Below are positions 1-19,703 of a DNA stretch of 41,761 bases, in pieces. Made by a program: the position numbers and the translations under genes. The stretch covers positions 1 through 41,761 of the forward strand of contig CAZTHA010000002.1 in the NCBI GenBank assembly GCA_964613435.1, given 5' to 3'. The number at the start of each line of letters is the position of its first letter. The stretch's first letter is position 1. The notes under the pieces are model-generated. The model did not search any database. It was not told the origin of the DNA and was given only the letters and a program-made list of their open reading frames with translations. This stretch comes from an uncultured bacterium (GTDB lineage Bacteria > Muiribacteriota > Ozemobacteria > Ozemobacterales > Ozemobacteraceae).

Positions 1-597
1 GCAAACCGGATGCTTGGACGAGCAGATGATGATTTCTGAGCCTTTTACGGCGGTTCCGCAGTTGGCGCAGTTCATGATGCTGTTTTCATCTATTTTCTCT
101 GCCTGGGTTTCGGACAATACTTTGTCGCTGGCGCTGTAATAAGATGAAAAGTCGAATGTATCTATGGGAAACCTGCTGCCATTTTGACTGGCCCACTTGG
201 CCGCCTCGCCATTGAGGGGGCTTTTCAGGTTATAACTCTGGTAGGAAAGCATTTCGCCGATGCGCACGATGAGATTGGGAAGAGATTCCCCAGCTGCCCA
301 GTGGTCACCGATGCAGATGGCATGGGGAGCAATGTTGGGATGAAATACCGGCGTAAGCATTCGGCACTGGGGTGGTTGACGGGGATAAGAAGCCGAAAGA
401 TAGATTTCGGCAATATGGTTGTTTTTTACCTTAACGGAGCCGTCAGGGTTCATTACCAGGCTGTTGACCAGAAATTCGATCTGATACTTTTCAGGCGGAT
501 GACCGGTGGCAGCTTTGATGTGAATGCGACTTTCCTCATTGAAGGTAGCAACAATTTTTTCGTAGTCTGACTGTAGACGTCGGTGTCTTATACTCAT
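1..597 (-). CDS. Ubiquitin-conjugating enzyme (E2/UBC-fold) homolog with C-terminal Cys-rich zinc module; C-terminus runs off the window
   Basis: Absent from the ORF track because there is no stop inside the window. Hand translation of the minus strand from ATG 597..595 stays open for all 199 codons to base 1: MSIRHRRLQSDYEKIVATF...EIYLSASYPRQPPQCRMLTPVFHPNIAPHAICIGDHWAAGESLPNLIVRIGEMLSYQSYNLKSPLNGEAAKW... UBC landmarks present: N-terminal RLQxDY helix, YPxxPP, HPN triad (334..342) and a Cys 9 residues after the His (Cys95, 313..315). From aa 177, CANCGTAVKGSEIIICSSKHPVC repeats the CxxC-x11/12-C opening of the zinc fingers in the two upstream genes. ATGA overlap with the preceding gene (594..597). 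Confidence 0.85.
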   Translation of the reverse strand, partial: MSIRHRRLQSDYEKIVATFNEESRIHIKAATGHPPEKYQIEFLVNSLVMNPDGSVKVKNNHIAEIYLSASYPRQPPQCRMLTPVFHPNIAPHAICIGDHWAAGESLPNLIVRIGEMLSYQSYNLKSPLNGEAAKWASQNGSRFPIDTFDFSSYYSASDKVLSETQAEKIDENSIMNCANCGTAVKGSEIIICSSKHPVC

Positions 598-1931
598 CGG
601 TTAGGTTCCTTTTCAGCCAGCTGGCCGGCTCCTGAAAGGGCAAGCAGTTCAAGCCATTCTGGTTCGAGCAGCTGGAAAAATTCATCAATTGCAATTGAAA
701 AGTTTAGGCCTTCAGTGGCGGTTTTGGCATATATCCAGGTGTTTACTCCGATCAGGTACCCTTCGAGGTCATAGAGCCCGCCACCGGAATTGCCGTGATT
801 GAGCGGAGTCTGCATCTGAACGACGGTTATTTCTCTTGAACCATGTCGATTTTTGCGCAGGGCAGAAATCACGCCATCGGTGTATGTCCAGTTCAGGCCG
901 ATAGGATTACCGATGGCAAATACTCTTTGTCCCATTGTAAGCGCGCGGCCTTGCTGGTATTTCAGCTGAGGAACGAACCCGTTGGGGGTGCTCACTCTGA
1001 TCAAGGCCAGATCAATTTCATCTGGTGCCAGCCAAACCGGGGTTGCCCCCGTGGTTTCGCCGGAGTAAAAGGTCACTTCGACGTTGCCGGCCTTTGCTTT
1101 CAGCTCTTCAAGAGATTTTACCCGGGTTCCGAGGGTGAGCACATGGGCGTTGGTCAAAATGTAAGTGAAGGCGTCGCGGTTACAAAGGGCTATTCCTGAA
1201 CCCATGCCCATTCTAAAGCCACTGCCGGCTTTGATGTGAACATTTGCCATCAGCGGGCCTTTGATGGCAGGGGCCGCTGTGCGAATTGCTTCGCCAATTT
1301 GTTTCATATCCGGTTTGAATTGTTCGCCCTGTTCGGTTTCGGGGTTCATCAGGGGATAAAGGGTGAGCAACAGAGCGATAATGGCGCTGCCCATTCCGGC
1401 AAAAGACAGAGGCAGGCCTTTACTGGTGCTGTTATTTTGAAAGGTTGCGATTGAAATCGCGCCGACCAGGACTGAAACCAGACAACCGCCAAGAGAAAGC
1501 AGAAAGACTGCCGTCTGGTATTCGGAGACCTTTTCGGTCGAAAAATTGACGAGGCTTACTGCAAGGGTACCCAGGCCGATAACCAGGGCAAAAATCGCCA
1601 GGGGTGACCAGGTCAGCTTTTGTTGCTGCTGAATCTCATCAGCAATGGCCGCGGTACCATATCTGCTGTTGGCCGGAACCTCTTTAAGATTTTCAAGGTC
1701 AGCTTTGGTAATAACGATATCAGCGGAGCCACCGGTAATTGGGGCGGAACTGCCGGCCCGGCAATGATAGCTGCCGCAACCGCATCTTTGCCAGCAGATT
1801 TCGTGGTTCATCGCCCCGCATTTGTGACAAATGTAAGCTGCTTCGCCCTCTTTAAGGGGTTGCAGGCACGATGGGCATGCTGTTCCAGCTCTAAGGCCGT
1901 CTACGATAATTCTGTCTCCGTTTGTGTTCAT
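594..1931 (-). CDS. Membrane protein: N-terminal C4HC3 RING/PHD-like zinc finger, 3 predicted TM helices, C-terminal trypsin-like (S1/Trypsin_2) serine protease
   Basis: 445-aa ORF. Finger at aa 19-57: CPSC-x12-CHKC-x4-H-x2-CW-x2-CGCGSYHC. Hydrophobic segments at about aa 108-130, 140-164 and 173-195. Catalytic triad contexts: LTNAHVL (His263, 1143..1145), DLALIRV (Asp307, 1011..1013), GNSGGGLY (Ser382, 786..788). ATGA overlaps at both ends. Confidence 0.85.
   Translation of the reverse strand: MNTNGDRIIVDGLRAGTACPSCLQPLKEGEAAYICHKCGAMNHEICWQRCGCGSYHCRAGSSAPITGGSADIVITKADLENLKEVPANSRYGTAAIADEIQQQQKLTWSPLAIFALVIGLGTLAVSLVNFSTEKVSEYQTAVFLLSLGGCLVSVLVGAISIATFQNNSTSKGLPLSFAGMGSAIIALLLTLYPLMNPETEQGEQFKPDMKQIGEAIRTAAPAIKGPLMANVHIKAGSGFRMGMGSGIALCNRDAFTYILTNAHVLTLGTRVKSLEELKAKAGNVEVTFYSGETTGATPVWLAPDEIDLALIRVSTPNGFVPQLKYQQGRALTMGQRVFAIGNPIGLNWTYTDGVISALRKNRHGSREITVVQMQTPLNHGNSGGGLYDLEGYLIGVNTWIYAKTATEGLNFSIAIDEFFQLLEPEWLELLALSGAGQLAEKEPNR
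1761..1877 (-). other. C4HC3 cross-brace-type zinc finger (RING/PHD-like, candidate prokaryotic RING) module 1
   Basis: Ligand pattern C19-x2-C22-x12-C35-x2-C38-x4-H43-x2-C46-x3-C50-x-C52-x4-C57, with Trp directly after the 6th ligand. Boundary Cys codons checked on the DNA (gca at 1875..1877 and 1761..1763). Confidence 0.65.
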
Positions 1932-2599
1932 TTGAATACCATCGAATAAAGGATGAAAATTACGGCTATCGCTGCCCAGAGAACCGAAATAGCCATTGCC
2001 GCATAAAAAAGAACTTTCAGGGATGGCGGCAGGCGCTTGGCTCTGAAACTCCAGCTATCGGTAAAAGCTGCGATAAGGTTCAACGGCAGCATGATGAAAA
2101 CGAGGCAGCCGATGGTGCTAAAGACAAATTGGGCAATGACCGCTGTTTTTATTCTTCCGAGTTCTTTTTCGTCATAGATTCGGTCTTGCCACTCGACCTT
2201 GGTCATCGGTCGTTCGGTTGGAAAAGTCGCTTTACATACCTTGCAGACAAGGGCATTTGCGATGATGCTCGAACCGCATTCTGGGCATTTTTTTTCGGCA
2301 GTCCAACCTGGGGTGAAAATATCCTCCGGAACTGCTTCCTTGGCGACAGTGACCGGTGCGGCCGCACAACCGTAGGTGCCGCAACCGCCGATTTCCTGCC
2401 AGCAGTCATGGTGGTAGGGCAAAGAACACTCTGGACAGACGACAATGGTGTCGCTCTGCATTATTCCGGTGCCACAGGTCGAGCAGATTTTGCCGATGTG
2501 TTCAGCAGATGGAGAAACTGGACTAACCTGTACTCTTTTGCCAACGTTTACTGGCCGCTGCATTTTTCCGGTTTTACTGCCAGGTTTGAGGGTGTTCAT
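1928..2599 (-). CDS. Membrane protein: C4HC3 RING/PHD-like zinc finger, a second CxxC..CxxC zinc ribbon, 2 C-terminal TM helices
   Basis: 223-aa ORF. Finger at aa 39-78: CSTC-x12-CPEC-x4-HH-x-CW-x5-CGTYGC, paralogous to the finger in 594..1931. Second ribbon: KCPECGSSIIANALVCKVC. Hydrophobic segments at about aa 150-176 and 190-222. ATGA overlaps at both ends. Confidence 0.8.
   Translation of the reverse strand: MNTLKPGSKTGKMQRPVNVGKRVQVSPVSPSAEHIGKICSTCGTGIMQSDTIVVCPECSLPYHHDCWQEIGGCGTYGCAAAPVTVAKEAVPEDIFTPGWTAEKKCPECGSSIIANALVCKVCKATFPTERPMTKVEWQDRIYDEKELGRIKTAVIAQFVFSTIGCLVFIMLPLNLIAAFTDSWSFRAKRLPPSLKVLFYAAMAISVLWAAIAVIFILYSMVFK
2366..2485 (-). other. C4HC3 cross-brace-type zinc finger (RING/PHD-like) module 2
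   Basis: C39-x2-C42-x12-C55-x2-C58-x4-H63-x2-C66-x6-C73-x4-C78, again with CW after the His. Boundary Cys codons checked (gca 2483..2485, aca 2366..2368). Confidence 0.65.
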
Positions 2600-3696
2600 G
2601 ATCTTTCCTTTTGCTGAAACTCAAGCAGACTTTCGCCAATAATGATGACATCGCCTTTTTCAAGAACTTTTCTGGCGACTCTCTGTGAGTTGACAAAAAC
2701 GCCCTGAGGGCTGTTCTTGTCGATAACCTCAAATTTGCTGCCAACCTGTTTGATTTCAGCGTGATGCGGCTCAACGGCGGGATCTTTGAAAATGTAGACA
2801 TCGCATTTTGGTGAGCTGCCGATTATAGTCGGATTGTGGTAGATTACGAATTGTTTGCCTCTGAGTGGGCCAGTTTTCATGATCAACCAGGCGTCTTTGG
2901 TCAGATTCTCGACCAGTCCGGTAAATACTCCGACCATCAAGCCAATGATACAGAATCCGATCATACGGCTGGTACCGCCAGAGTCAGCAAAGCCGAGCTT
3001 CGTAAGTGAAAAGCCAATTGGGTCAAAAAGCAGTCCGCCGAGGAAACCGCCAAGAAGCCCACCGACCATGCCGTTAAGAAGGAGTTTTTTCGATTTCAGG
3101 GCAATGCCGGGTCCAACCCCCATGCCGGCGCCGACTATTGTCCAGGCCATGGCTCTGGCACTGATCAGAACAAAAAGAATGCCAGGGGTAAGGAAGGCCA
3201 GCGGGTCAGCCGGATTCGGTTGCTCTGAGGGCATATTTCTTAGAAAGAACGGCAGACCAAAAGCCTTGACCAGGTTCATCGCAAAACCGCCAATCATGGT
3301 ACCGACAATCCCCCAGACCAAACCAATGCCGACGCCAATTCCGCCACATCGCATGGCCTTGAGAAAGTTTCGCGACATTATGCCTTCGATCAGGCCAACG
3401 AACAGACCTATCATTGCTGGTACCGCGACGAGCATCATTAAAATGCCGGAGCCCCGTTCTTCAGAAGAACCGGGGGAAGTAATGAAGGGCTCGAACAGTG
3501 CCCAGGCAAGAAAAGCCCCGGCTAGTCCAGCTGCTGCCGTATAAAAAACCGGATTCAACCAGAACGCGGTTTCTACCGGGGCTCTTTCGGCGGGGGTAAG
3601 CTGGCGTCGAGCCGCCTGGTGAGCCATAAGCATGTCTTCCACTTTGGGGTCACGCAGATCTCGTTTGGTTATGACAATGGTTTCTTCTTCTGCCAT
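2596..3696 (-). CDS. Polytopic glycine-zipper-rich membrane protein with C-terminal FHA (phosphothreonine-binding) domain
   Basis: The track ORF 2596..3726 begins at a TTG. An in-frame ATG at 3696 is preceded by GAGAGGAAAAAA (good SD), so 3696 is preferred. About 6 TM segments rich in GxxxG runs (GGIGVGIGLVWGIVGTMIGG, GMVGGLLGGFLGGLL). The C-terminal ~85 aa (2617..2874) read GKQFVIYHNPTIIGSSPKCDVYIFKDPAVEPHHAEIKQVGSKFEVIDKNSPQGVFVNSQRV...GDVIIIGESLLEF, a typical FHA pattern (G-R/S...S..H..I...G.....D..S.NG..VN). Confidence 0.8.
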   Translation of the reverse strand: MAEEETIVITKRDLRDPKVEDMLMAHQAARRQLTPAERAPVETAFWLNPVFYTAAAGLAGAFLAWALFEPFITSPGSSEERGSGILMMLVAVPAMIGLFVGLIEGIMSRNFLKAMRCGGIGVGIGLVWGIVGTMIGGFAMNLVKAFGLPFFLRNMPSEQPNPADPLAFLTPGILFVLISARAMAWTIVGAGMGVGPGIALKSKKLLLNGMVGGLLGGFLGGLLFDPIGFSLTKLGFADSGGTSRMIGFCIIGLMVGVFTGLVENLTKDAWLIMKTGPLRGKQFVIYHNPTIIGSSPKCDVYIFKDPAVEPHHAEIKQVGSKFEVIDKNSPQGVFVNSQRVARKVLEKGDVIIIGESLLEFQQKERS

Positions 3697-3722
3697 TTTT
3701 TTCCTCTCTGCCGGTGGGGCCG

Positions 3723-4994
3723 TCAAAACAGCCAGGGCAACTTCTCTTTCAATCCGGGTTCAAGACGCGGGTCGAGTTCGATTATGTGGCGAATTAAAGC
3801 TTTGGCTTCGCCAAGCCGGTTGATGTCAGGTGGCGATGCCGATAGAGCAACCAGATAGGGGGTAAGTTGCACCAGCAGACTTTGCGCAATCGTTTGCCTG
3901 AGCTGTTTCATCAGTTCTTCAGATTTTTCGGTCGTGCGCAGGGGCTGGTTGGTTACTGATTCAAGGGCACTCTGGACTCTTGTGCGGCGCTCAACAGAAG
4001 AAGAGGCGATTTCGTCGAGACGAATCTGCAGGGCGCTGATTTCAGAACTAAGTTCGGCTGTCGCCGAGGCAAACTCACTTGAATTGGTCATCTGCTGATG
4101 AAAGCCGTCGGAAAAAGCCTGCAATTTCCCCTGCAGTTGTCGAAGCTCTTCGGCGGCGGCGGTGTCTGCGGCCCAGGCGCCCAGCAATTCTCGGGTTTCG
4201 GCTCTGGCGGTTTTGATTATTTGATCGGTCAAAGCTCTTTGCAGCAATGTCGTTGCCAGAGAAAAACCGATTAGAAAGGCCAGTGCCAGAGTAAGGTAAC
4301 GATATGTAGATCCTTCTTCACTGGGCGATTCGAGCTTTTCTGACGTTGGCTGGGCCGGAATCGGTTGTTGTGAATAATTGGCCTGAGCCGGGAATTTTTC
4401 GCGAATCTCTTCGCTGCCAACCGCGCCCTGGGTAAGACGGTGCATTTCTTCGCCGACCCAGCAGCGTGACAAAGCCCGGGTTTTGCCTTCGATCCAGGCG
4501 AACAGGCCTTCTTTGGAATTGATTGGATCGATTACCAGCGCTACTTGAAACGGTTGATTGAAAAAATAGTCCTGGATGAATTTGTCCATGTCGGAGAGGA
4601 AAATTCCGAAACCAGGGTGGGTGTGATACCAGCCGACAATTGCCTTGTTTTTAAACTTGGCTTCCATTTCGGCATGAATGTAATCCCAGGTTTCATGAGT
4701 GAATGCAACCTGTGCGCCTTCGTTTCTGGCATGTTTGCCTCGAATGCTACCGCTGATGACCAGATATTTTCCTGAGTCGTCCTGGCAGGTTGTGCCGACG
4801 AGAATGCCGCAAAGCTCTACTGCCACGGTTTCTTTGGCGTGCTCCTGAAGCTCCTGATAAACTGATTTTTCAATTAAAACTCTTGGTTCATCATTGTTCT
4901 GGCCGGGAAAAGGTTTATTCTTTTTCTCGTGGGCATCGTAGCCTTTTTGAAAATCAAGGCCTTCAACTGCGGGCTGGATGTTTTTCTGAGTCAT
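3723..4994 (-). CDS. JAB/MPN (JAMM) metallopeptidase, candidate Ubl-processing/deconjugating enzyme, with a TM helix and C-terminal coiled-coil region
   Basis: JAMM motif E77 (VAVELCG) plus H141-T-H143-PGFGIFL-S151-DM-D154 (4584..4625, codons checked). TM-like segment YRYLTLALAFLIGFSLATTLL, followed by heptad-like, Q/E/L-rich sequence. Start set at ATG 4994 (AGGAAAGG SD upstream, 4 nt after the E1 stop). The track start at 5045 would overlap E1 by 47 nt. Confidence 0.85.
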   Translation of the reverse strand: MTQKNIQPAVEGLDFQKGYDAHEKKNKPFPGQNNDEPRVLIEKSVYQELQEHAKETVAVELCGILVGTTCQDDSGKYLVISGSIRGKHARNEGAQVAFTHETWDYIHAEMEAKFKNKAIVGWYHTHPGFGIFLSDMDKFIQDYFFNQPFQVALVIDPINSKEGLFAWIEGKTRALSRCWVGEEMHRLTQGAVGSEEIREKFPAQANYSQQPIPAQPTSEKLESPSEEGSTYRYLTLALAFLIGFSLATTLLQRALTDQIIKTARAETRELLGAWAADTAAAEELRQLQGKLQAFSDGFHQQMTNSSEFASATAELSSEISALQIRLDEIASSSVERRTRVQSALESVTNQPLRTTEKSEELMKQLRQTIAQSLLVQLTPYLVALSASPPDINRLGEAKALIRHIIELDPRLEPGLKEKLPWLF

Positions 4995-4998
4995 TGTT

Positions 4999-6213
4999 TC
5001 AGCCTTTCCTCGAGAGGGTACCCAGCAGCTTTTCGCGATCGCCATTGAGCAGCCAGGTTTTCTGGTTTTCGCCGTCTCTGCCTAAAAACACGTCGAATGC
5101 CGGAACTCCCAGTTCGGCGAGAGTCATCTGTTGCCAGGGCTCACTGCCATCGAACTGATGCGCCAGAATTGGGAAACGTGGCTTTTTGCAGTTTGGACAG
5201 ATTGCTGCTGACTCCTTGACGTTGCCGAGCGAGGCATGAAATTCAGTTTCAATATTGCATTCGCTACAGGAAAAGCCGGTGAGAACTTCCTGGCGAAGTT
5301 CAAGAACCGCCGATTCACCGAGATCTTTTCGGATTATCTGCAATGCCTGCGCCAGGGACAATTTATCGGCCTGGGCATCGAGTTCGATGATCGGCAGGTA
5401 ACTTTCATGGGAAAAACAATCGGCTTTGCGCTTGTAACTGATCACATCCTGGTAAAAATTGAGGCCTTCGAAGATGTAGCCCTTGCCGGAAATGACTTCC
5501 ATGCCGTGCAAAAGCTTGATCGCTTCCTGACATTGTATTGCGGCGATAACGCTGGCAATGGTCGGAGTGGTCGGGGTTTTTCCAGACATCATCTCTTCTC
5601 GGGTCAGCAGAGTGCAGGATTTACGCGCATTAAGTATTTTCCAGTCGACTTCGCTCATTGTACACTCATAGCACGGGCCATCAGGAGAAAAGGCTCGCGC
5701 GATACCGCTTAGGCCTTCTATTGCTCCATCTATCCAGGTTTTTCCGCAGCGAAAAGAATTCTGGTTAATGGCCAGGCGTGCTTCACGATTATCGAGTCCG
5801 CCAAGGATAACGTCGGCCCAGAGAAAAGCGCCCAGGCCAAGATCGGTGACTGCGTTCAGGCAAAGAGCTTTGATGTTGATCTCGGGAAGGATGTCTCTGG
5901 CTCTTTCTGCAGCAACTTCTGCTTTTTGCCGGCCACGATCGGCTTCACGAAAAAGAATAGATCGCGACAGGTTTGAAGGCTCTATCTGGTCGAAGTCGAC
6001 GACGAGAATATTTCCGATGCCAACCAGGGCGAAATTCTTGATAATTTCATTGCCAAGGGCCCCGGCGCCAATAACCAGTATTTTGGCGGCACTGAGCTTT
6101 TTTTGGTCCCACCAGCGAATCAGTTCAAAACGTGAAAAACGGTTTTCTTCCTGATTTGGGTCGATGTGCAGGATTTCAGGGGCTTTATCGGAATTATTCT
6201 GGTCTGAATTCAT
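4999..6213 (-). CDS. E1-like adenylating enzyme (ThiF/MoeB/UBA superfamily) with C-terminal zinc-ribbon domain
   Basis: 404 aa. Rossmann GxGxxG VIGAGALGNE (6052..6069), VVDFDQIEPSNLSRS, GGLDNREAR, CYEC zinc pair, and a candidate crossover-loop catalytic Cys200 (RKSCTLL, 5614..5616) ahead of TPTTPT. C-terminal CSECN-x17-CPNC ribbon. ATGA overlap with the Ubl gene. Confidence 0.85.
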   Translation of the reverse strand: MNSDQNNSDKAPEILHIDPNQEENRFSRFELIRWWDQKKLSAAKILVIGAGALGNEIIKNFALVGIGNILVVDFDQIEPSNLSRSILFREADRGRQKAEVAAERARDILPEINIKALCLNAVTDLGLGAFLWADVILGGLDNREARLAINQNSFRCGKTWIDGAIEGLSGIARAFSPDGPCYECTMSEVDWKILNARKSCTLLTREEMMSGKTPTTPTIASVIAAIQCQEAIKLLHGMEVISGKGYIFEGLNFYQDVISYKRKADCFSHESYLPIIELDAQADKLSLAQALQIIRKDLGESAVLELRQEVLTGFSCSECNIETEFHASLGNVKESAAICPNCKKPRFPILAHQFDGSEPWQQMTLAELGVPAFDVFLGRDGENQKTWLLNGDREKLLGTLSRKG

Positions 6214-6488
6214 TCAGCTCTTCCTGCGGTAATTTCAGGCTGAATTCTCAAGATATCGCCGGATTGAACTCCTGCCTGGCGAAAGGTTTCATCGTCAAGA
6301 AGCTGTCTTCCCGAAGCTTTATGATGAAATTTGTAGCTCATCAGCTGGCCATCAGGCGTAAAGCGTGGCAGATTCATCTTGTCGATCAGAAGAATGATTA
6401 TTCGGTTCAGTGCTTCATCATCGGGTAATTCTGCTTTGACTTTTTTGTTACCGGTAGCATCCCAGATTTCTACCATTACTGACCCCAT
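6210..6488 (-). CDS. Ubiquitin-like beta-grasp protein (Ubl) with C-terminal ..ITAG-RAE tail
   Basis: 92 aa, first gene of the operon. SD AAAGGGGA lies 9 nt upstream of ATG 6488. Sequence VEIWDATGNKKVKAELPDDEALNRIIILLIDKMNLP...GRQLLDDETFRQAGVQSGDILRIQPEITAG has ubiquitin-like strand/helix periodicity. Gly89 (6222..6224) is followed by only 3 residues. Assignment rests on size, position before the E1, and pattern. Confidence 0.7.
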   Translation of the reverse strand: MGSVMVEIWDATGNKKVKAELPDDEALNRIIILLIDKMNLPRFTPDGQLMSYKFHHKASGRQLLDDETFRQAGVQSGDILRIQPEITAGRAE

Positions 6489-6550
6489 TGAATATGGTCC
6501 CCTTTTCTATAATTGCAGGTTTGTCGACCTGGTTTTGTAAAAAACATCTA

Positions 6551-6586
6551 AAAAATTGCTCGGTTTGAAAAAAAGTATAAACCCGA
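6551..6586 (-). terminator. Weak candidate intrinsic terminator between the TerB-like gene and the Ubl operon
   Basis: Minus strand reads TCGGGTTT-atactttttttc-AAACCGA, then gcaaTTTTT. The stem is 7 bp with a bulge and is AT-rich. Confidence 0.3.
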
Positions 6587-6670
6587 CCAGAAAATAATTC
6601 AACAAAACAGGATACCACTTCCGGGCGGTTTTTATTGCGGGATCGTAAAAAGATTCTCGGCGCTGTCAGA

Positions 6671-9067
6671 TTAATCTCTTTTTGCGCGCGATTTGAAAAG
6701 ATTTTCTGCCTGTTTTTCCTGCTTAACCTGGTTCTCCACCTTTCGCATCAGCATCTTGAGATCAGTTTTTCCATAGCCGAACTTTCTCGCCAGTTGTTCT
6801 ATGTAATCCTGCTCTTCTGTGGCAATTTCTCCATCGGCAAGAGCCATTCTGATTGCCGATTCCATTAACTTATGAGCTTCTCTAAGGTCTTTGGGGATCG
6901 GTATATGTAGTTCACCCTGTTTTACCGCTTCAATGATTCCGCTTAAAAGTTCTTCCGACATCGAGAAACTCTCGGCAAACTCTCTGATGAGTTTCATTTC
7001 GGCATCGTCGATTTTACCATCGGCAAGCAGCATTTGTGCGGCCATACTGATTAAGTCGCGTCCCGAGCGCATCGTTTCATTGTCGACTTTTTCCCGTTTA
7101 ACTTCTTCGACAACCTTTTTGATCAGCTTTTGTTTGAAAACCTGAACAGATATGTATTCCTGGCTTTCGGGGTTGAGAATTTTTTCGAGAATCCAGTCCG
7201 AACCGTCGTTCAAAAGTGCGTTACAGTAGTTACAGTTTATGGCGAAGCCCGAAGTCATTGGTCCACCACAAAAATGACAGTGGGCACTGCTTAGCGCGTT
7301 GTTTAGATTGGTTTTTTGCCCAGGTTTTCTGACAAAGACAAATACGTCGCGCCTTGGCTTTACGAAACGGTGCAGTTGGGGAATTCGCCCCTGGGCGGTG
7401 CAGCTGACCGGGATTCCACTCCAGACGACGAGCAGATAGATTCTTTCGACGTCTTCTTTAACCATTATTGCCTTGAGGGTTGCCGAGGCAAAAGAGATGT
7501 TTTCAAAAAAAGTGAATTTACCGGTTGAAGAAAACAAAAATTTAAAATTTTCACAACATTTTTCGGTGGCGAATCTCTGAATTGGTTCCATTTTTCTCTG
7601 TTGCTCTGCCAGGCGGATCATCCAGAAGACGACGGCACAACGGTCTTCTATCTGCTGGGTCGTGAATTGTGGGTCCGAACCTTTCAGTTCATTCCAGCCG
7701 GGTATAACTCTGGGATTTGCGTATTCCCACTCGCAGGCCTGAGTGATCTGCGATAAGACCCAGTCGTAATTTCCAGAGCGGATGAAGGAATTGCAGACCG
7801 AACAGATGGTGGCCTGGCCAATCAGGATCGGCGCACCGCAGTTGGGGCAGCTTCCTTCCATCAAGCCTGGTTTATCGAGAGTCTTTGCTGAAGGCTTACG
7901 AACAAAAGACCAGTATTCGCATATTTTCTGCAACTTGTTTTCGGCATTGAGAGTTTCGCCGGTAACGACATCGATAGCTGTTTCAACAGCCTGGGCTCGC
8001 ACCAGAACATGGACCTCGTCAAAAATGTCATCTGAAGCGATGCGGGCAATCTGGGCGGTCTGGATGTCGACCTCGGGGCAGCTGAAGCGAATGCCGGCTT
8101 CCTTTTGCTCGGTGACCCGGCAGCGGAACTGCTCGAAAAGGGCGTCGGAAACCATTGCCTGAATGGTTTCAATTTCGTGACTATAGCAGGCGTGGTGGAT
8201 TTTTTCGAAGGCAACTCGAAATTTGTTCAGAAAGTTTTCTGAGCTGAATCCTGGATCTTTTTTGGTTAATGCCAGCATGGACTGTTGAAGTTCAGCGGGA
8301 CCCTGAATCTCGAGAAGGGATGACAGGGCATAGGAATGGCGATTCGCTGTTATTGGTGACTGCTCTTCTTCTTCGGTTTCAAAATCTCCCTGATTCATTT
8401 TTTTTACTTTGCCCCAACTTTCAGCCAGCGCCTGGATTTCCGGGCCGATTATTTCCCAGAGGTCGCCCTTCAAAATGCTGTGGTTTGGATTGATTCTGCT
8501 TTTCTGGGTTGAACTGAGCCTGGCGAGAACCCTGACTTCGCCCTGAGAATAGCGGCTTCTAAGGGCATGGTTGGCTCTTATGGCGAAAAGATGGCACATG
8601 GGCATCATAAGAAGAAAAATCATTGGCTTTTTGAGGAAATACCAGCTTAAAGCGATCAGTAGCAGGGCAATAAAGCTCAGAACTATACTGCCGATCCTTT
8701 TTTGATGCCAGAGAAAAACCGGAACGAAAAATGCGCAGATTACCAGAATGGACTCAATTGGAGCGATGAAAAAATAGAAAAAGCAAAAAAACAGTGATGC
8801 TCCGTAGACTATATAGACTATCGGCTCGGTTTGCTGGGTAATCCTTAGCACTACCAGAGTTACAATAGCAAAAAAGCAAAAAAACGAAACGTCGGGAGAG
8901 AAGTAGTTGTAATACTGAGCCTGGCCATCTTTTATGCCAAGAAAAGAAAGGGTGGTCGGAGCGATGAAGTCGTCGGTAAGGTCCTGAAAAACGAAAGCCA
9001 TGAAACCTGCAGCCAATAAAATAAGTATAAATACTGCATAAAAAGATTCTTTTTGAATTTTCATCAC
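6671..9067 (-). CDS. Large membrane protein: N-terminal multi-TM region, 2x (Tim44-like domain + CxxC..CxxC zinc ribbon), C-terminal TerB-like domain
   Basis: 798 aa. About 6 hydrophobic helices in the first ~165 aa. Tim44-like stretch: FLNKFRVAFEKIHHACYSHEIETIQAMVSDALFEQFRCRV...ICEYWSFVRKP. Ribbons: CPNCGAPILIGQATICSVC and CHFCGGPMTSGFAINCNYC, each followed by DW(V/I)L. The C-terminus (about 6734..7090) has paired ADG-(K/E)I-x-x-x-E repeats (LLADGKIDDAEMKLIREFAESF, ALADGEIATEEQDYIEQLARKFG) typical of TerB/DjlA-N-like domains. Confidence 0.6.
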   Translation of the reverse strand: MMKIQKESFYAVFILILLAAGFMAFVFQDLTDDFIAPTTLSFLGIKDGQAQYYNYFSPDVSFFCFFAIVTLVVLRITQQTEPIVYIVYGASLFFCFFYFFIAPIESILVICAFFVPVFLWHQKRIGSIVLSFIALLLIALSWYFLKKPMIFLLMMPMCHLFAIRANHALRSRYSQGEVRVLARLSSTQKSRINPNHSILKGDLWEIIGPEIQALAESWGKVKKMNQGDFETEEEEQSPITANRHSYALSSLLEIQGPAELQQSMLALTKKDPGFSSENFLNKFRVAFEKIHHACYSHEIETIQAMVSDALFEQFRCRVTEQKEAGIRFSCPEVDIQTAQIARIASDDIFDEVHVLVRAQAVETAIDVVTGETLNAENKLQKICEYWSFVRKPSAKTLDKPGLMEGSCPNCGAPILIGQATICSVCNSFIRSGNYDWVLSQITQACEWEYANPRVIPGWNELKGSDPQFTTQQIEDRCAVVFWMIRLAEQQRKMEPIQRFATEKCCENFKFLFSSTGKFTFFENISFASATLKAIMVKEDVERIYLLVVWSGIPVSCTAQGRIPQLHRFVKPRRDVFVFVRKPGQKTNLNNALSSAHCHFCGGPMTSGFAINCNYCNALLNDGSDWILEKILNPESQEYISVQVFKQKLIKKVVEEVKREKVDNETMRSGRDLISMAAQMLLADGKIDDAEMKLIREFAESFSMSEELLSGIIEAVKQGELHIPIPKDLREAHKLMESAIRMALADGEIATEEQDYIEQLARKFGYGKTDLKMLMRKVENQVKQEKQAENLFKSRAKRD

Positions 9068-9232
9068 TGTTTGCCTTTTCTGTTAACATGATTACATTAT
9101 TGTTCCGGCAAAGCAATAATATTTAATGCCTTGAAGCGGCGACGAGGCCAGCAGTTAAGACTTTATTGCCGCTTGCATGTTTTTTCGTTCAATAAAGAAG
9201 TCTTGTTAACCGGCAAGGTTGGGTCAGAACGC

Positions 9233-10039
9233 ATGGTTAAAATTAGTGGCGCGAGCACAAGTGGGGTTCCGGGTGGGTTCATATCCATGCCCGGAGCTAC
9301 GTATGTCGGTGATTCAAAATTGCTCGGTTTATGGATTTTTCTCGATGATGTCGCAATTTCACAAGTTCTATTGAAATTTGCCGACAAAAAACCTGTGAGA
9401 ATTTCTTTTAAGGAATTTTCTCGGGTTGTCAGTTTCTTAAAAGATTTCAGTCGCGGTAATTCTTATCAGTTTGAAAGTCTTGCGCCAGATTCGACAAAGA
9501 TTTCAATTGCTCTTCTGGAAAGCAATCGGGTAATGCTGCACTGGGAAGAAGCTCGAATAGTGCTTTTACCCCTGGATTTCATGCTGGCACTGAATGTGTT
9601 GTTTGCTATCGAGAAGAAGCTTGAAAAGATGATTCAACGTCGGAATGAAAGAAAACAACTCCTCAGGCAGGGAAATCTTTTGGAGTTCCTCTACCAGTGG
9701 TCTGGCTTTCTGGTTTATGCGTTTCTGGCTATGGTTGATTTTGGTTTGCTCGTGGCTGTGTTTTTTCATTCCCAATTGGTGACGCCTTTGCTTGGTCTAA
9801 CCATCTTTCTTGGGGTGTGGCTGTTCATATTTCAGCCGGAGTGGTCGTTTCGTTTGGTGCCGGCTATCAAAAGCTATCTCAACGAAGAATTGCTCGCCGA
9901 TATTTCCCATTTGAAAAGTTCGCAAAAAAACGTTGGAATTGTAATCATGCTGATTTTGCTGCTGGTTTTTTACATTTATTTCGGCTGGGAATTTGTCAGC
10001 ATGGTTATCAGCTTTTTCAAGGGTAGTCAGTCCCTTTGA
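9233..10039 (+). CDS. Hypothetical membrane protein (soluble N-terminal half, 3-4 C-terminal TM helices)
   Basis: Long ORF. The track start is TTG 9131; the first ATG, at 9233, is preferred. Hydrophobic segments in the C-terminal half. No recognisable motif. Confidence 0.55.
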   Translation: MVKISGASTSGVPGGFISMPGATYVGDSKLLGLWIFLDDVAISQVLLKFADKKPVRISFKEFSRVVSFLKDFSRGNSYQFESLAPDSTKISIALLESNRVMLHWEEARIVLLPLDFMLALNVLFAIEKKLEKMIQRRNERKQLLRQGNLLEFLYQWSGFLVYAFLAMVDFGLLVAVFFHSQLVTPLLGLTIFLGVWLFIFQPEWSFRLVPAIKSYLNEELLADISHLKSSQKNVGIVIMLILLLVFYIYFGWEFVSMVISFFKGSQSL

Positions 10040-10074
10040 ACGATTTTGCCGGCAAGTTCAGCATTTAAAAACGT

Positions 10075-11013
10075 TCATTTTTTTGCTTCTGTGGCTTCGA
10101 AAAGGTATGTTGCCGGTGACTTTGCCATTAAAACCGGGCGCATGACCATCAATCCTTTGACTGTTTTGTGATTACGCATGTAATCATAAAAATCCTGGTC
10201 GACAATGCGGTTGAGTTTTAAGGAGGCATGGCGAAACCAGCTTTTCTGACCTTTTTGGATGAAAAAGCCCATGTGGGTTACGTCCAGGCCTTCTTTGTCG
10301 GTTACCAGAGCCAGAATGTCACCGGATTCTGGAGTGAATTCCTTTTCAAGAACCTTGGCGATCGGAAAATACCACATAATCTGCGGATCTTTGGCGATCA
10401 TGAACCGATCTTCCACATAGAATGTTCGATTTTGCTTCACTCGATTCAAAAAAAGAACTCTTCTGACGGCAAGCTTGTGACTTCTTGCAATGTTGATCAG
10501 ATACCCTTTTTGCTCATTTGCATCTGCCCATTGGGAGGTGAAATGGTTGCGCAGATGGTTCAGCAGGACGCTTCCGTTTGCCGAATACATGATGTCGACG
10601 AGATGGGCAAGAAAGCCAGTCTGATATTCAGGGTTTTCGGCGCTTGCTATTGCAAGAACATGCTCGACATAGGTCATACAATCGAGAAATTTTAAGTTGG
10701 TGCGTAAATAGTCGACCGTAAGCGGATTTTCATTCTCTGCTTCCTTTTTTTCGACCTTTTTGTGTTTCTGCTTGTTGATGCGGGCTCTGGTCTCGGGCCG
10801 ATATTTTCTGCCGAGCAGGTATCCGGAAATAAATTCTACTCGTCTTGGTGCCGGTAATTTTTGCGACATACCGATCAGGCGTTCTATTTCTTTTTTATCA
10901 TCAAAATTTTTCAGCCTGATTTTGTTGACGGCTATTTCTTCTGCAAAAGCAAAATTGCTCAGAACATTGCAGAGAACGATAAGCAATACTATTTTTGTGA
11001 TGCTGAAATTCAT
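10075..11013 (-). CDS. Secreted hypothetical protein, possibly DUF1460-like (amidase/NlpC-like fold)
   Basis: 312 aa with signal peptide MNFSITKIVLLIVLCNVLSNFAFA. The LDCMTYVEHVLA-type Cys motif and overall size recall the DUF1460 family. The family assignment is from memory only. Confidence 0.4.
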   Translation of the reverse strand: MNFSITKIVLLIVLCNVLSNFAFAEEIAVNKIRLKNFDDKKEIERLIGMSQKLPAPRRVEFISGYLLGRKYRPETRARINKQKHKKVEKKEAENENPLTVDYLRTNLKFLDCMTYVEHVLAIASAENPEYQTGFLAHLVDIMYSANGSVLLNHLRNHFTSQWADANEQKGYLINIARSHKLAVRRVLFLNRVKQNRTFYVEDRFMIAKDPQIMWYFPIAKVLEKEFTPESGDILALVTDKEGLDVTHMGFFIQKGQKSWFRHASLKLNRIVDQDFYDYMRNHKTVKGLMVMRPVLMAKSPATYLFEATEAKK

Positions 11014-15333: not shown

Positions 15334-16860
15334 TTAGATCAAAGGTCGCAGCCACTGCAGTTTGCGCATAATGTTCATTTTCTTGACCACTTTTTCATTT
15401 ACGTGGTCTTCGGGGCCGTATGCTTTGATGATGCGGCCATCTTTATCGAGTTCAATGCGGTATTCGATTACTTTTTTCATATCCTGTTCGAGAATTCTTA
15501 AACGGACTCTGGTAGCAAAGCTCTTGTCGAGAACGGCGGCAACAACTTCCGAGTTGATGTCTTCGCTCAATGGATCCATGTTATAAGAGCCGATAACAGT
15601 GATGAGGCTGTCGAAAACGAAAGTCTTTGAATGAAGTCTTTCGTTCTGGCTGGGAGCTACCATTATTCTTGAGCCAGGCATGGTTTTGAGGATTCTTTTC
15701 CAGTCATTCATCAAAAAGGCTTGCGGGAAGAGTGAATCGGTTGAATCGGCGCTGTTGGTGTGGAAAATTATTTTGACGCCGCGGGCTGCAGCTCTTTTGA
15801 GGGCTGCTTCAGCTTCTTCGGTGATTACCAGATAAGGGTTCTGGATGATAATTTCATTGCGACAGGCATCGATCATCTTGATCAGGTTCGGGGTAATACC
15901 GTTCAGCGCGCCGATGCGTGAATGTTTGTCGAGAATTTTGACCGGCATGGGTCTTTCGCCTCTAAAGAGCTGATAGCCAGAATAAGAAGAAATGTTTTTG
16001 TAGCGGCTGATTTCTTCGTTCATTTCTGTCAGGATTTTTGCCAACTTGCCAGACAGTTTGCTTTGATCAGGCTTGTAGAGACCACGGCCCTGCATGTAAC
16101 GTGACATTACACGATAGGCCAGATCAACACTGGCCAGCTGATCTTTGATATTGATTTTGTCTGCTTTTACCACCGAATTCTTGAGGTGGTTCCATTCGTC
16201 GTTGAAAGCTTTCTGCAGCTGGGTGGCAACGTGCTTGCCCTGCATGAGAATGTCGGTGTCTCGGTAGACTATGTCATTTTCGCCATTCTGGGCATAGTAA
16301 TCTGCACCAATGTTGCGGCCGCCGATGATCGATGTAAAGCTGTCGGTAATGATAATTTTGTCGTGATTCGAAGCGGCAACCTTTTTAAGATCGCTGAAAA
16401 TTCCGGAAAGAGATTTGCGAACCGAGTTATATAATTTGATCTGAACGTTGGGAAATGCTGCCAGTTCTTCGATTTTGTCAGGCATTTTGCTCATATAAGG
16501 CATTCGATAAACACGGCCGTCGATCATCAAGCGAATTCTTACGCCGCTTCTCGCCTTTTTGAGCAGCAAACCGATGAAAGCCTGTCCAAACATGTCTTTG
16601 TCGACGATGTAATAGGTGCAGTCAATGCTGTCTTTGGCGTCCTCGATCATTTTCCAGCGGCAATACCAGGCATCGTCGTTGTTGGGAACAAAACGAACTC
16701 TGGTTAAATCGCGGCTGTTAACGTTAATACTGTTAAAAATTTCGCTCAGGCTACGGTTGTCGGGAACTGGTCTGTAAGCGGCCCAGCTTGAGGAAACAAA
16801 CATGAGCATTGCAATCACGAGAGCTATCGATCTATAAAAAACTTTCATAGCTTTCTCCAA
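15334..16860 (-). CDS. Secreted phospholipase D superfamily protein with two HKD motifs
   Basis: 508 aa with signal peptide (VFYRSIALVIAMLMFVSSSWA). HKD motif 1: NHDKIIITDSFTSIIGGRNI. HKD motif 2: LHSKTFVFDSLITVIGSYNM (HxKx4Dx6G(G/S)xN). Confidence 0.85.
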   Translation of the reverse strand: MEKAMKVFYRSIALVIAMLMFVSSSWAAYRPVPDNRSLSEIFNSINVNSRDLTRVRFVPNNDDAWYCRWKMIEDAKDSIDCTYYIVDKDMFGQAFIGLLLKKARSGVRIRLMIDGRVYRMPYMSKMPDKIEELAAFPNVQIKLYNSVRKSLSGIFSDLKKVAASNHDKIIITDSFTSIIGGRNIGADYYAQNGENDIVYRDTDILMQGKHVATQLQKAFNDEWNHLKNSVVKADKINIKDQLASVDLAYRVMSRYMQGRGLYKPDQSKLSGKLAKILTEMNEEISRYKNISSYSGYQLFRGERPMPVKILDKHSRIGALNGITPNLIKMIDACRNEIIIQNPYLVITEEAEAALKRAAARGVKIIFHTNSADSTDSLFPQAFLMNDWKRILKTMPGSRIMVAPSQNERLHSKTFVFDSLITVIGSYNMDPLSEDINSEVVAAVLDKSFATRVRLRILEQDMKKVIEYRIELDKDGRIIKAYGPEDHVNEKVVKKMNIMRKLQWLRPLI

Positions 16861-17606: not shown

Positions 17607-19703
17607 ATGAGAATAATACAGGTAGTCAACGCGCTGACATTTGGCGGTGCTCAGGTCATAATTCTCGATCTCGCCAAAAAGTTGCTTGATGAGGGGCACG
17701 CTGTCGAGGTGCTGGCCTTCCGAGACGGTCCAATTGGAAAAAAACTGCGTGATGCTGGTTGCCCAACCCATATTCTCGGCGAAAGCATGCTCGATTTTCT
17801 TGCTTTTCAGCGCTTTAATCGTATCGTAAAGGATTTCAAGCCCGATATCATTCATTCACATCTTTTTCGGGCCACTTTCTGGTCGAGAATGGTGCGAATG
17901 TTCAACCCGCAGGTTTACCTGATAACCTCGGTACATGGGCGGGAGTCGGATTTTTTTCATGCTTGCGAACGCATTACCGCAGGAATTTCCGATTATATTA
18001 CCTTTCCAAGTGAATATTTGCGGCAATGGTATCTGAAGAATATTCGCAAGTTGCCCAGAACGCGAACTGGGGTCATATATCCTGGAGTGGACATTGTTTC
18101 TGAGATTTCTGCTGACGAATTTACCGACCAATACCCGTTGCCGGTTGTTGGTACCTTGTCGAGGCTCCACCCGGTAAAGGGCGTAGATCTGCTGATTCGT
18201 GCCGCCGCCAAGCTCAAACAAAGAGAGATAGACTTCGAGCTGCTGATCGGTGGTGATGGTCGCCAGAGATCTGAGTTGACACAGCTTGCTGAAAATTTGA
18301 ATATTGCTGAACGCTGCCGGTTTGTCGGCGAGATAGATGATGTTAAGGGCTTTTTGAGCCGGTTTAGTATTTTTGTGGCCGCTTCGCGGCAGGAGGCTTT
18401 CGGCATTCATGTCTGCGAGGCTATGGAAAGAGGGATTCCCGTGGTTGCTGCTCGCATCGATGGCCTGGTCGAGCTGATTGAACACGAGTCCACTGGGTTG
18501 TTGTTCGAGTCCGGCAATGCTGATTCGCTTGCAGATGAACTTGAAAGGCTCATCAAAGATCCGGCTTTGCAAAATTCACTTGCGTTAGCGGCAAGAAACA
18601 AAGTGATTGCAACTTTTAACCGCCGGATCGCTATTGAAAAGCATTTAAAGCTTTATTCTTCGCTGGCCTACCGTCCGCGTCATCTGCACTTTATCATCTC
18701 TTCAGGAGAACTTGGTGGCGGCGAAAGACTGGCTCTAAGTCTTGTTAGAGGGTTTCAGCAAAGAGGCTGGCTGGTTAGCGCAACTTGTTGCGGACAGCCA
18801 CTGACAGACGAATTGCGCGCTTCCGGAATTGAATATTCAAGCTCTGGTTTGCGGCTGGCAGGGTTTTTCTTTGCCCTGCGATCGTTTTTCGATCTTATTC
18901 GTAAAAGGCCTGATTTAATCAGTTCGCACCTTAACAAGGCCAGCTTGTTTGCCGGTGTGTTAGGCAAAATTCTCCGTATTCCGGTTATTTCTCACGTTCA
19001 TGGTCTGAATCGCCGGCTTTATTATACGGGTAGCAGTCACCTCATTGCTGTTTCTGAGGCGGTAAGACAGCATCTGCTCGCTCAAGGCGTCACTGCTGAA
19101 AAAATTACCGTTATTAAAAACGCCGTGCCTTTCAATGCGGCTCAGAATATCAGAGCTCCCGGCGATCCAATTAAAATAGCCGTAATCGCCAAACTGCACC
19201 GAAATAAGGGCCATGAATGGGCGTTAAGAGCTCTTTTACAAAACTCTGCAGCATTGCCAAATTTCGAATTGCATATCCTGGGAGATGGGCCTGAACGAAA
19301 GAATTTGAAAAGAATCTGTGACGAGTTGGACAAAAAACGTCAGGTTCACTTTTATGGTTTCATAAAAGATGTGCGCCCGCATCTTGAAAAGATCGATCTG
19401 GCGTTGCTGCCTTCGCTTGGCGAAGGAATTCCACTAAGTCTGCTTGAAGCGATGAGTTTGGGAATCCCGGTTGTGGCCACCAAAGTGGGCGGTATCCCGG
19501 AAATAGTTGAAGAAGATCGCAATGGGCTGCTTGTGCCGCCAAACGACACCGAGGCTTTGATCGGTGCAATTTCCAGAGCGACGGATCTCATCAATTATCA
19601 GCGACTGAGCCGCGGCGCGCTGGAAAAATTCTCTGAGTTAAACGATTTCGAAGAAATGGTTGAAGAAACGGCATCGGTTTTTGCTGAATTGTGCAGTAAA
19701 TGA
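17607..19703 (+). CDS. Fused tandem glycosyltransferase (two GT-B/GT4-like modules in one 698-aa protein)
   Basis: Two copies of the GT4 C-terminal signature: EAFGIHVCEAMERGIPVVAARIDGLVELIEHESTGLL (first half) and EGIPLSLLEAMSLGIPVVATKVGGIPEIVEEDRNGLLVPPND (second half). Each follows an N-terminal GGAQ/GGGER-type Rossmann start. Confidence 0.8.
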   Translation: MRIIQVVNALTFGGAQVIILDLAKKLLDEGHAVEVLAFRDGPIGKKLRDAGCPTHILGESMLDFLAFQRFNRIVKDFKPDIIHSHLFRATFWSRMVRMFNPQVYLITSVHGRESDFFHACERITAGISDYITFPSEYLRQWYLKNIRKLPRTRTGVIYPGVDIVSEISADEFTDQYPLPVVGTLSRLHPVKGVDLLIRAAAKLKQREIDFELLIGGDGRQRSELTQLAENLNIAERCRFVGEIDDVKGFLSRFSIFVAASRQEAFGIHVCEAMERGIPVVAARIDGLVELIEHESTGLLFESGNADSLADELERLIKDPALQNSLALAARNKVIATFNRRIAIEKHLKLYSSLAYRPRHLHFIISSGELGGGERLALSLVRGFQQRGWLVSATCCGQPLTDELRASGIEYSSSGLRLAGFFFALRSFFDLIRKRPDLISSHLNKASLFAGVLGKILRIPVISHVHGLNRRLYYTGSSHLIAVSEAVRQHLLAQGVTAEKITVIKNAVPFNAAQNIRAPGDPIKIAVIAKLHRNKGHEWALRALLQNSAALPNFELHILGDGPERKNLKRICDELDKKRQVHFYGFIKDVRPHLEKIDLALLPSLGEGIPLSLLEAMSLGIPVVATKVGGIPEIVEEDRNGLLVPPNDTEALIGAISRATDLINYQRLSRGALEKFSELNDFEEMVEETASVFAELCSK

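Follow-up and report, generated by a model that had tools for sequence, protein, structure and literature searches.

The first 597 nucleotides of the window, the 41,761-nt stretch of Ozemobacteraceae contig CAZTHA010000002.1 (GCA_964613435.1) analyzed here, very probably encode on the minus strand (597..1) the first two thirds of a ubiquitin-conjugating enzyme (E2) that is catalytically competent and has a His-Pro-Asn (HPN) motif and a predicted catalytic cysteine, Cys95. On this reading of the sequence, the enzyme carries out conjugation in a bacterial ubiquitin-like protein (Ubl) system that is conserved and membrane-associated. All coordinates are those of the forward strand. Gene content, motifs, predicted fold, and conservation are established, whereas we infer every biochemical step described below.

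A UBC-type E2 at the left edge of the window

Translation of the window from the ATG at 597 gave 199 sense codons and zero stops. The peptide contains RLQSDYEKI, YPRQPP, VFHPNIAPHAICIGDHW, LIVRIGEMLSY, PLNGEAAKW, and CANCG-x11-C, which bears out the open frame and the motifs quoted in a first-pass annotation of this DNA. The open reading frame (ORF) track shows only an antisense ORF here, because the tool omits ORFs that run past the end of the source sequence; the practical lesson is that genes crossing a window edge are lost from ORF tracks. The first-pass annotation had called the listed ORF an antisense shadow, and both the Pfam match and the ratio of nonsynonymous to synonymous substitution rates (dN/dS) agree with it, since they fall on the minus strand. 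The dN/dS of the E2 is 0.026 against the 87%-identical orthologue in a related contig (L002), with 0.027 for the adjoining RING-protease gene. Therefore, the minus strand codes and the E2 gene is strongly constrained by purifying selection. The ATG at 597 shares an ATGA junction with the TGA stop of the upstream 445-aa gene, an overlap typical of coupled genes. The features of this region are as follows.

1..597, minus strand: E2, N-terminal 199 codons of about 295 aa, leaving the window at its left edge
About aa 1-160 of the E2, minus strand: UBC core, with HPN at nt 342..334 and the predicted catalytic Cys95 at nt 315..313
nt 69..1, minus strand: first five ligands of the E2 zinc-repeat tail (C177, C180, C192, H196, C199)
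184..570, plus strand: 128-aa ORF with a TTG start, an antisense shadow of the E2 and not a gene

The Pfam family UQ_con (PF00179) matched the E2 peptide with E = 1.9e-11 and 44.2 bits, compared with a gathering cut-off of 27, over model positions 29-132 of 140. Searching the PDB with phmmer returned 259 distinct chains at E <= 10, and the best 60 of these 259 are all eukaryotic E2s (top E = 4e-8); in the alignments, H86-P87-N88 and C95 fall on the catalytic HPN and Cys of Ubc13 and UBE2B/Rad6. A homology search found 3931 proteins at E <= 1e-3, the full-length relatives being about 295 aa long. Among the best 120 of the 3931, the pattern [FY]HPN-x6-C is kept in 120 of 120, and a precomputed PF00179 assignment is present on all. 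Across 37 diverse homologues, there is no variation at R7, L8, Y71-P72-R73, P76, Q77, C78, H86-P87-N88, H92, C95, D98, or W100, or in the SPL-G-AA-W helix. Close relatives also come from Victivallales and other lineages, and homologues occur in many bacterial metagenome-assembled genomes (MAGs).

The fold was examined with an AlphaFold2 model of the closest homologue (P0001), which is 95% identical to the window fragment. The model has a mean predicted local distance difference test score (pLDDT) of 81.8 and the full UBC layout, with a helix at 3-18, a sheet of four to five strands, and helices at 106-118, 130-138, and 151-157, so that the C-terminal helices are present. Foldseek matched the model to 77 PDB chains at E <= 1e-3, and the best 50 of the 77 are all eukaryotic E2s with template modelling (TM) scores of 0.45-0.62. 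Judged by sequence and model, the protein is a genuine UBC-fold, eukaryote-type enzyme with HPN and a predicted catalytic Cys95. The first-pass assignment to the UBC-type E2s was supported by UQ_con, the PDB alignment, and Foldseek together.

The best sequence and fold matches are the eukaryotic class-I/II E2s, including Ubc13/UBE2N, Rad6/UBE2A/B, UBE2K, and Ubc9. In common with these enzymes, the present E2 has YPxxPP, HPN, the catalytic Cys, the conserved Trp, and the SPLN-x-EAA helix, and its Ser126 stands at the position of Rad6 Ser120. In contrast, the identity is just 16-23%, the loops on both sides of the Cys are shorter (the Asn-Cys gap is 6 residues versus 7 in eukaryotes and the Cys-Trp gap is 4 versus 7), and C78, His92, Asp98, and His99 are additional invariant residues. 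The word canonical, used in the first-pass annotation, therefore needs qualifying: the motif aligns to Ubc13 and Rad6, but the loops flanking Cys95 are shorter than in eukaryotes and the model is least confident there. The retention of HPN, which had been thought striking, is indeed invariant in the family, but it is less surprising since close homologues are already named "ubiquitin-conjugating enzyme E2" or "ubiquitin-protein ligase" by NCBI and JGI.

Further invariant residues accompany HPN and Cys95 in the family. C78 (window 364-366, minus strand) is an invariant second Cys, which aligns with Val67 of UbcH5 in our own alignment. The invariant His92 (322-324) and Asp98-His99 (301-306, minus strand) flank the catalytic Cys, in the loops that are shorter than the eukaryotic ones.

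The remainder of the gene was sought in related contigs. The exact 445-aa upstream protein was found only on a 4988-bp contig (L001), which ends even earlier within the E2, and an exact 42-mer from the first bases of the window had no match in a scan of genome contigs. Two members of the P0001 cluster (P0271 and P0273) are identical to the window E2 over their first 199 residues. The contig that carries P0273 (L012, 13.2 kb) is collinear with window 1..10596 at 95.3% DNA identity and continues for about 1.8 kb further. Its E2 runs to 295 aa and then a stop, with none of the frameshifts or early stops that the first-pass annotation had suggested looking for beyond the edge, and the gene is likewise intact at 295 aa in L002 and in five cluster members. 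Downstream of the E2, L012 encodes a membrane protein of 275 aa that has a Prok-RING_1 finger, and then a 152-aa DUF2752 membrane protein (L012:10951-12253). The near-identical copy of the 275-aa protein in L002 scores 30.3 bits with Prok-RING_1 (cut-off 29.1), and DUF2752 also follows the E2 in two further loci (L008 and L009).

These findings bear on whether the E2 gene could be a pseudogene, truncated or in decay, or else a eukaryotic contaminant. The window does end within the gene, and two other assemblies (L001 among them) also break there. However, the low dN/dS and the intact orthologues speak against decay, and contamination is at odds with a start that overlaps the bacterial RING-HtrA gene (ATGA), with bacterial flanking genes, and with homologues in many bacterial MAGs. 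Selection, orthologues, and bacterial context together effectively refute both possibilities, which we consider extremely improbable.

The Ubl operon and its proposed pathway

Window 1..6488 encodes a co-directional Ubl, ThiF-type E1, JAB peptidase, Prok-RING fingers, and UBC E2, the five components of this operon class. Beyond the E2, the genes are the following, with E-values from Pfam.

594..1931, minus strand: RING-HtrA protein, 445 aa; its stop overlaps the E2 start, and it adjoins the E2 in every locus examined
1928..2599, minus strand: Prok-RING_1 protein, 223 aa; PF14446 E = 1.6e-12, 47.6 bits (cut-off 29.1)
2596..3696, minus strand: FHA membrane protein, 366 aa; C-terminal FHA E = 6.9e-14; about six transmembrane helices, polytopic
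3723..4994, minus strand: JAB/JAMM metallopeptidase, 423 aa; JAB E = 2.2e-10, Prok-JAB E = 8.8e-8
4999..6213, minus strand: ThiF-type E1, 404 aa; ThiF E = 2.1e-50; GAGALGNE nucleotide loop (GxGxxG intact) and CxxC pairs
6210..6488, minus strand: YukD-like beta-grasp Ubl precursor, 92 aa; YukD E = 3.8e-8, 34.4 bits (cut-off 27); ends LRIQPEITAG-RAE
6671..9067, minus strand: Tim44/TerB membrane protein, 798 aa; Tim44 E = 1.5e-20, TerB E = 5.3e-10; about five transmembrane helices

In four distant loci, the C-terminal part of the Ubl reads QPEITAG(G) and then has 3-20 variable residues. The conserved ITAG(G) and the variable tail suggest that the protein is a precursor that would need trimming. 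The best solved relatives of the E1 are eukaryotic UBA7 (PDB phmmer 1.8e-24), UBA1, and UBA3, rather than ThiF or MoeB. The JAB peptidase has an intact JAMM motif (HTHP-x7-S-x2-D), one transmembrane helix, and a coiled-coil C-terminal region. Its longest ORF (440 aa, to 5045) overlaps the E1 stop by 47 nt, and the calls in relatives start at the later ATG (4994). Similarly, the longest ORF of the FHA gene reaches 3726 (376 aa), and the gene is called at 366 aa in L001, L002, and L012.

The RING fingers of the operon share the C4HC3 pattern C-x2-C-x12-C-x2-C-x4-H-x2-C-x6-C-x4-C and a conserved Trp. In the 445-aa protein (Trypsin_2 1.1e-23 and Prok-RING_1 5.9e-5 in Pfam; DegP/HtrA in NCBIfam), an N-terminal Prok-RING_1-like C4HC3 finger is followed by three predicted transmembrane helices (aa 110-191) and an HtrA/DegS-like trypsin domain, whose His, Asp, and GNSGG motifs are intact (TNAHV, DLALI, GNSGG). 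The 223-aa protein has a finger that is C4HC3 by alignment, an extra zinc ribbon, and two C-terminal transmembrane helices by hydropathy; these features make it a candidate membrane-anchored E3. Transmembrane helices are thus predicted in four operon proteins. The 798-aa protein lies directly upstream of the Ubl gene in the same direction and has two CxxC zinc ribbons and a C-terminal TerB domain. Its gene is syntenic in L012, whereas planctomycete loci (L007) have a zinc-ribbon transmembrane protein in its place, and it is possibly an accessory gene of the operon.

The genes for the Ubl, E1, JAB, FHA, RING, RING-trypsin, and E2 proteins co-occur in the same order in the window, in L012, in two planctomycete loci (L007 and L008), and in a JGI metagenome locus (L010). 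A riflebacterial locus (L009) has the RING-trypsin, E2, and DUF2752 genes together. The operon is a conserved, mostly membrane-anchored Ubl system that is widespread in Planctomycetota, Riflebacteria, and related lineages.

The following pathway is proposed for the operon. The JAB peptidase would trim the Ubl precursor and expose ITAG, and the ThiF-type E1 would then adenylate the Ubl and form a thioester with it. By transthiolation, the Ubl would be handed to Cys95 of the E2 as the thioester acceptor, with HPN as the oxyanion motif. The membrane-anchored Prok-RING_1 proteins, one of which is fused via three transmembrane helices to an HtrA-like protease, may act as E3s: they would bring the E2~Ubl to the inner membrane and stimulate passage of the Ubl onto lysines of targets near the membrane. 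Through binding of phospho-Thr, the FHA protein may contribute to target selection. The protease of the RING-HtrA fusion, which may be periplasmic, would also contribute, and the JAB peptidase could reverse the process by removing the Ubl mark.

Several points weigh against this assignment of a competent E2 in a membrane-associated system. The final 96 codons of the E2 are missing from the window itself. Beside the active site, at residues 96-99 and 123-128, the AlphaFold model has a confidence below 50, and it overlays eukaryotic E2s only moderately (TM 0.5-0.62). Due to this low local confidence and moderate overlay, the geometry of the cleft is not established; the arrangement of Cys95 and HPN is supported by alignment. 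Also, the membrane topology comes from a simple hydropathy scan, and no biochemistry or experimental study of this E2 family was found in the literature searched.

Burroughs-type operons have the same set of a YukD-like Ubl, ThiF E1, HPN UBC E2, Prok-RING_1 (PF14446), and JAB. The abstract of the 2011 Burroughs paper reportedly mentions YukD-like Ubls and oxyanion-hole residues in the E2s. In two papers (PMC4197634; PMC5654768), prokaryotic E1-E2-RING-JAB-Ubl operons are attributed to Burroughs, Iyer, and Aravind (Mol Biosyst 2011), and related operons in Actinobacteria, Planctomycetes, and Acidobacteria are described as uncharacterized, with a citation of Burroughs et al. 2011. The phyletic range overlaps with that found here, Planctomycetes being named in PMC4197634.

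The operon of Caldiarchaeum subterraneum also has separate E1, HPN-Cys E2, RING E3, and JAB/Rpn11 genes in one cluster, and its ubiquitylation cascade of Ub, E1, E2, small RING, and Rpn11 has been reconstituted in vitro (Hennell James et al. 2017; PMC5654768). By analogy, this cascade is probably the best experimental guide to how the present E2 would work. There are differences, since true ubiquitin and soluble proteins operate in Caldiarchaeum, whereas a YukD-like Ubl and mostly membrane-anchored partners are found here. Only the present system has two to three RING proteins, including the protease fusion, and an E2 with a zinc-repeat tail of about 120 aa.

All of the bacterial E1-E2-JAB-Ubl operons characterized experimentally so far serve in phage defense. 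BilB, the E2 domain of Cap2, and BubB are UBC-fold proteins like the present E2, and their operons, too, include genes for an E1, a Ubl, and a JAB protein. This raises the alternative that the operon serves in defense against phages in the manner of Bil, Bub, or type II CBASS (cyclic-oligonucleotide-based antiphage signaling system), and that its E2 would mark phage or host proteins in the course of an infection. In PADLOC, the trypsin domain weakly matches the retron-protease and LmuA models, and the E1 matches the E1-E2 and BilD models via its ThiF core. However, the E2, the Ubl, the FHA protein, and the 223-aa RING protein had no match to PADLOC models. The active sites also differ: the present E2 has HPN and Cys, unlike BilB, in which a CEHH motif replaces HPN (PMC11354881), and unlike BubB, which has a catalytic Ser and forms oxyester intermediates (PMC11601596). 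BubB and the E2 domain of Cap2 lack C-terminal helices (PMC11601596), and Cap2 is an E2-E1 fusion, whereas the E2 and E1 are separate genes here. The rest of the window is housekeeping in character, with genes for DnaB, a xanthine-dehydrogenase-like molybdoenzyme, glycosyltransferases, a P-type ATPase, and a TonB-dependent receptor, and conservation of the operon extends over whole phyla, almost all of its parts being membrane-anchored. A defense function is therefore judged unlikely.

As an E2 family, the group is already recognized and annotated. A 2024 review lists human-E2-like matches in Riflebacteria (PMC11354881), and an evolutionary survey states that no analyzed bacterial genome has a complete Ub toolkit (PMC4327156). 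The bacterial Ubl systems studied to date (Bil, Bub, and CBASS Cap2) use diverged E2s. Among bacterial sets, the present family comes nearest to the logic of E1, HPN-Cys E2, and RING E3 known from eukaryotes and archaea. A tractable member could reveal RING-stimulated transfer outside eukaryotes and archaea, as well as the role of a membrane-embedded Ubl system in bacteria. The parts most worth following are the RING-HtrA fusion and the unannotated zinc-repeat tail of the E2.

The cysteine-rich tail of the E2

The full-length E2 has, after its UBC core, a tail of about 120 residues with 28 invariant or near-invariant Cys and His. Only the first five of these ligands lie inside the window, which ends within the first module; the first-pass annotation had correctly described a CxxC-x11-C module that starts after the core and is cut by the edge. 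The spacing of this module is C-x2-C-x11-C-x3-H-x2-C-x2-C-x3-C-x2-C, and the tail is built of 15-residue units of the form C-x2-C-x3/4-C-x2-[CH]-x3/4. Repeat number changes by whole 15-aa units, with one homologue having an additional unit and others only the first half. As counted from the sequence, the 28 ligands would suffice for about seven zincs, or roughly one zinc per 17 residues. When modelled alone, the tail gave a pLDDT of 95 and a predicted TM score (pTM) of 0.79, and it appears as short hairpins in series, among which a two-fold repeat is seen.

The tail was compared with known domains, and none gave a family match. Pfam contained no matching family even at E <= 10, RING and B-box included, and NCBIfam had no match. 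The best hit of a profile search against the PDB was only a FYVE domain, with E = 0.014. Foldseek found nothing in the PDB at E <= 1e-3, and no RING; the nearest structures were tandem LIM domains with TM scores of about 0.28-0.38. An iron-sulfur motif was set aside on spacing alone, as the spacing is not CxxCxxCxxxC. The tail is also unrelated to the UBA domain of UBE2K.

The tandem LIM proteins LMO2, Isl1, and Lhx3 are the top Foldseek matches and resemble the tail in being elongated rods of consecutive small zinc modules. This likeness is weak (E = 4.5e-3, TM about 0.28-0.38, and a root-mean-square deviation of about 9 Å, with no sequence-profile match), and the ligand density of the tail is about twice that of LIM.

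In the first-pass annotation, the tail was likened to the fingers of the two upstream genes and the protein was put forward as a possible E2-E3 fusion. In such a hybrid, of the kind known from UBE2O and BIRC6, the tail would be a RING-like finger by which the E2 itself could act as a ligase or select substrates. The spacing of the first module does fit a generic C3HC4 RING except for a short last loop, and its modelled order of secondary structure, with a hairpin knuckle and ligands at a helix start, appears compatible with a treble clef. The weak profile matches of the tail are to cross-braced binuclear fingers as well (FYVE, PHD, TFIIH p44, and RBR). However, hhalign of the tail against the alignment of the operon Prok-RING_1 fingers gave a probability of just 9.9% over 16 columns, which cover only the first CxxC knuckle, so the likeness to the upstream fingers did not hold. 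The fusion proposal fared no better: Pfam at E <= 10 gave no RING, B-box, or other family, the best tandem LIM match had a TM score of only 0.28, and the operon already has two to three bona fide Prok-RING_1 proteins. The repeat is found, moreover, in proteins outside ubiquitin systems. We regard the E2-E3 hybrid as quite unlikely, somewhat more so than a role of the operon in defense, although the first module by itself may have a RING-like cross-brace.

The distribution of the repeat was established by searching 1.84 billion representatives with the tail profile, which found it in 626 clusters, including longer E2s with multiplied arrays and many non-E2 proteins. Four of the E2s, P0121 (645 aa), P0123, P0126, and P0128, have two to four tandem zinc modules separated by Pro/Ala-rich linkers. 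These multi-copy modules indicate that the tail is an expandable array.

Outside the E2s, the same 15-residue Cys/His array forms the C-terminal half of proteins of 660-770 aa (L013:8001-10316, L014/L015:8001-9989, and L016:5120-7108). Some of these have a YqhG-like N-terminal domain, and they are encoded directly downstream of SNF2-family helicases in unrelated bacteria. Some hosts of this pair have a gene for a small acid-soluble spore protein (SASP) nearby and thus look like spore formers. The array was also seen in one VWA protein, and no Pfam or NCBIfam model covers the repeat. Its presence in non-ubiquitin proteins and the absence of a family match suggest that the tail is a generic, unannotated zinc-repeat module. 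Rather than a RING E3, it is probably a rigid rod that serves for docking or as a scaffold on partners or substrates.

A broader reading is that the tail would be an undescribed zinc-rod domain with which the E2 receives its substrates or partners, and that the operon would be a membrane-spanning machine, similar to endoplasmic-reticulum-associated degradation (ERAD), in which Ubl tagging in the cytoplasm is linked to an HtrA-type protease in the periplasm. We put this forward as a speculation that is possible but doubtful. If true, it would provide a bacterial system in which all three ligase tiers act on membrane proteins.

Other observations on related contigs and neighboring genes

A contig 87% identical to the operon (L003; Logan SRR28385527_148486; 2-5238 and 6457-7861) has the layout of a circular permutation of it. 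The order runs from the E1 C-terminus to the E2, followed by about 1.2 kb of unique sequence, the last 136 or so aa of the Tim44/TerB protein, the Ubl, and the E1 N-terminus, and only about 437 nt of the E1 are missing between the two ends. This layout could reflect a tandem duplication, a circle of about 8.3 kb, or an assembly-graph loop. L001 likewise breaks in the E1 and the E2.

Further along the window, 17607-19703 (plus strand) encodes a 698-aa double glycosyltransferase family 4 (GT4) protein, which also matches the Pfam family GT4-conflict with E = 8.4e-22. GT4-conflict comprises family 4 glycosyltransferases found in conflict systems. A phospholipase D (PLD)-like protein is encoded near it, at 15334-16860.

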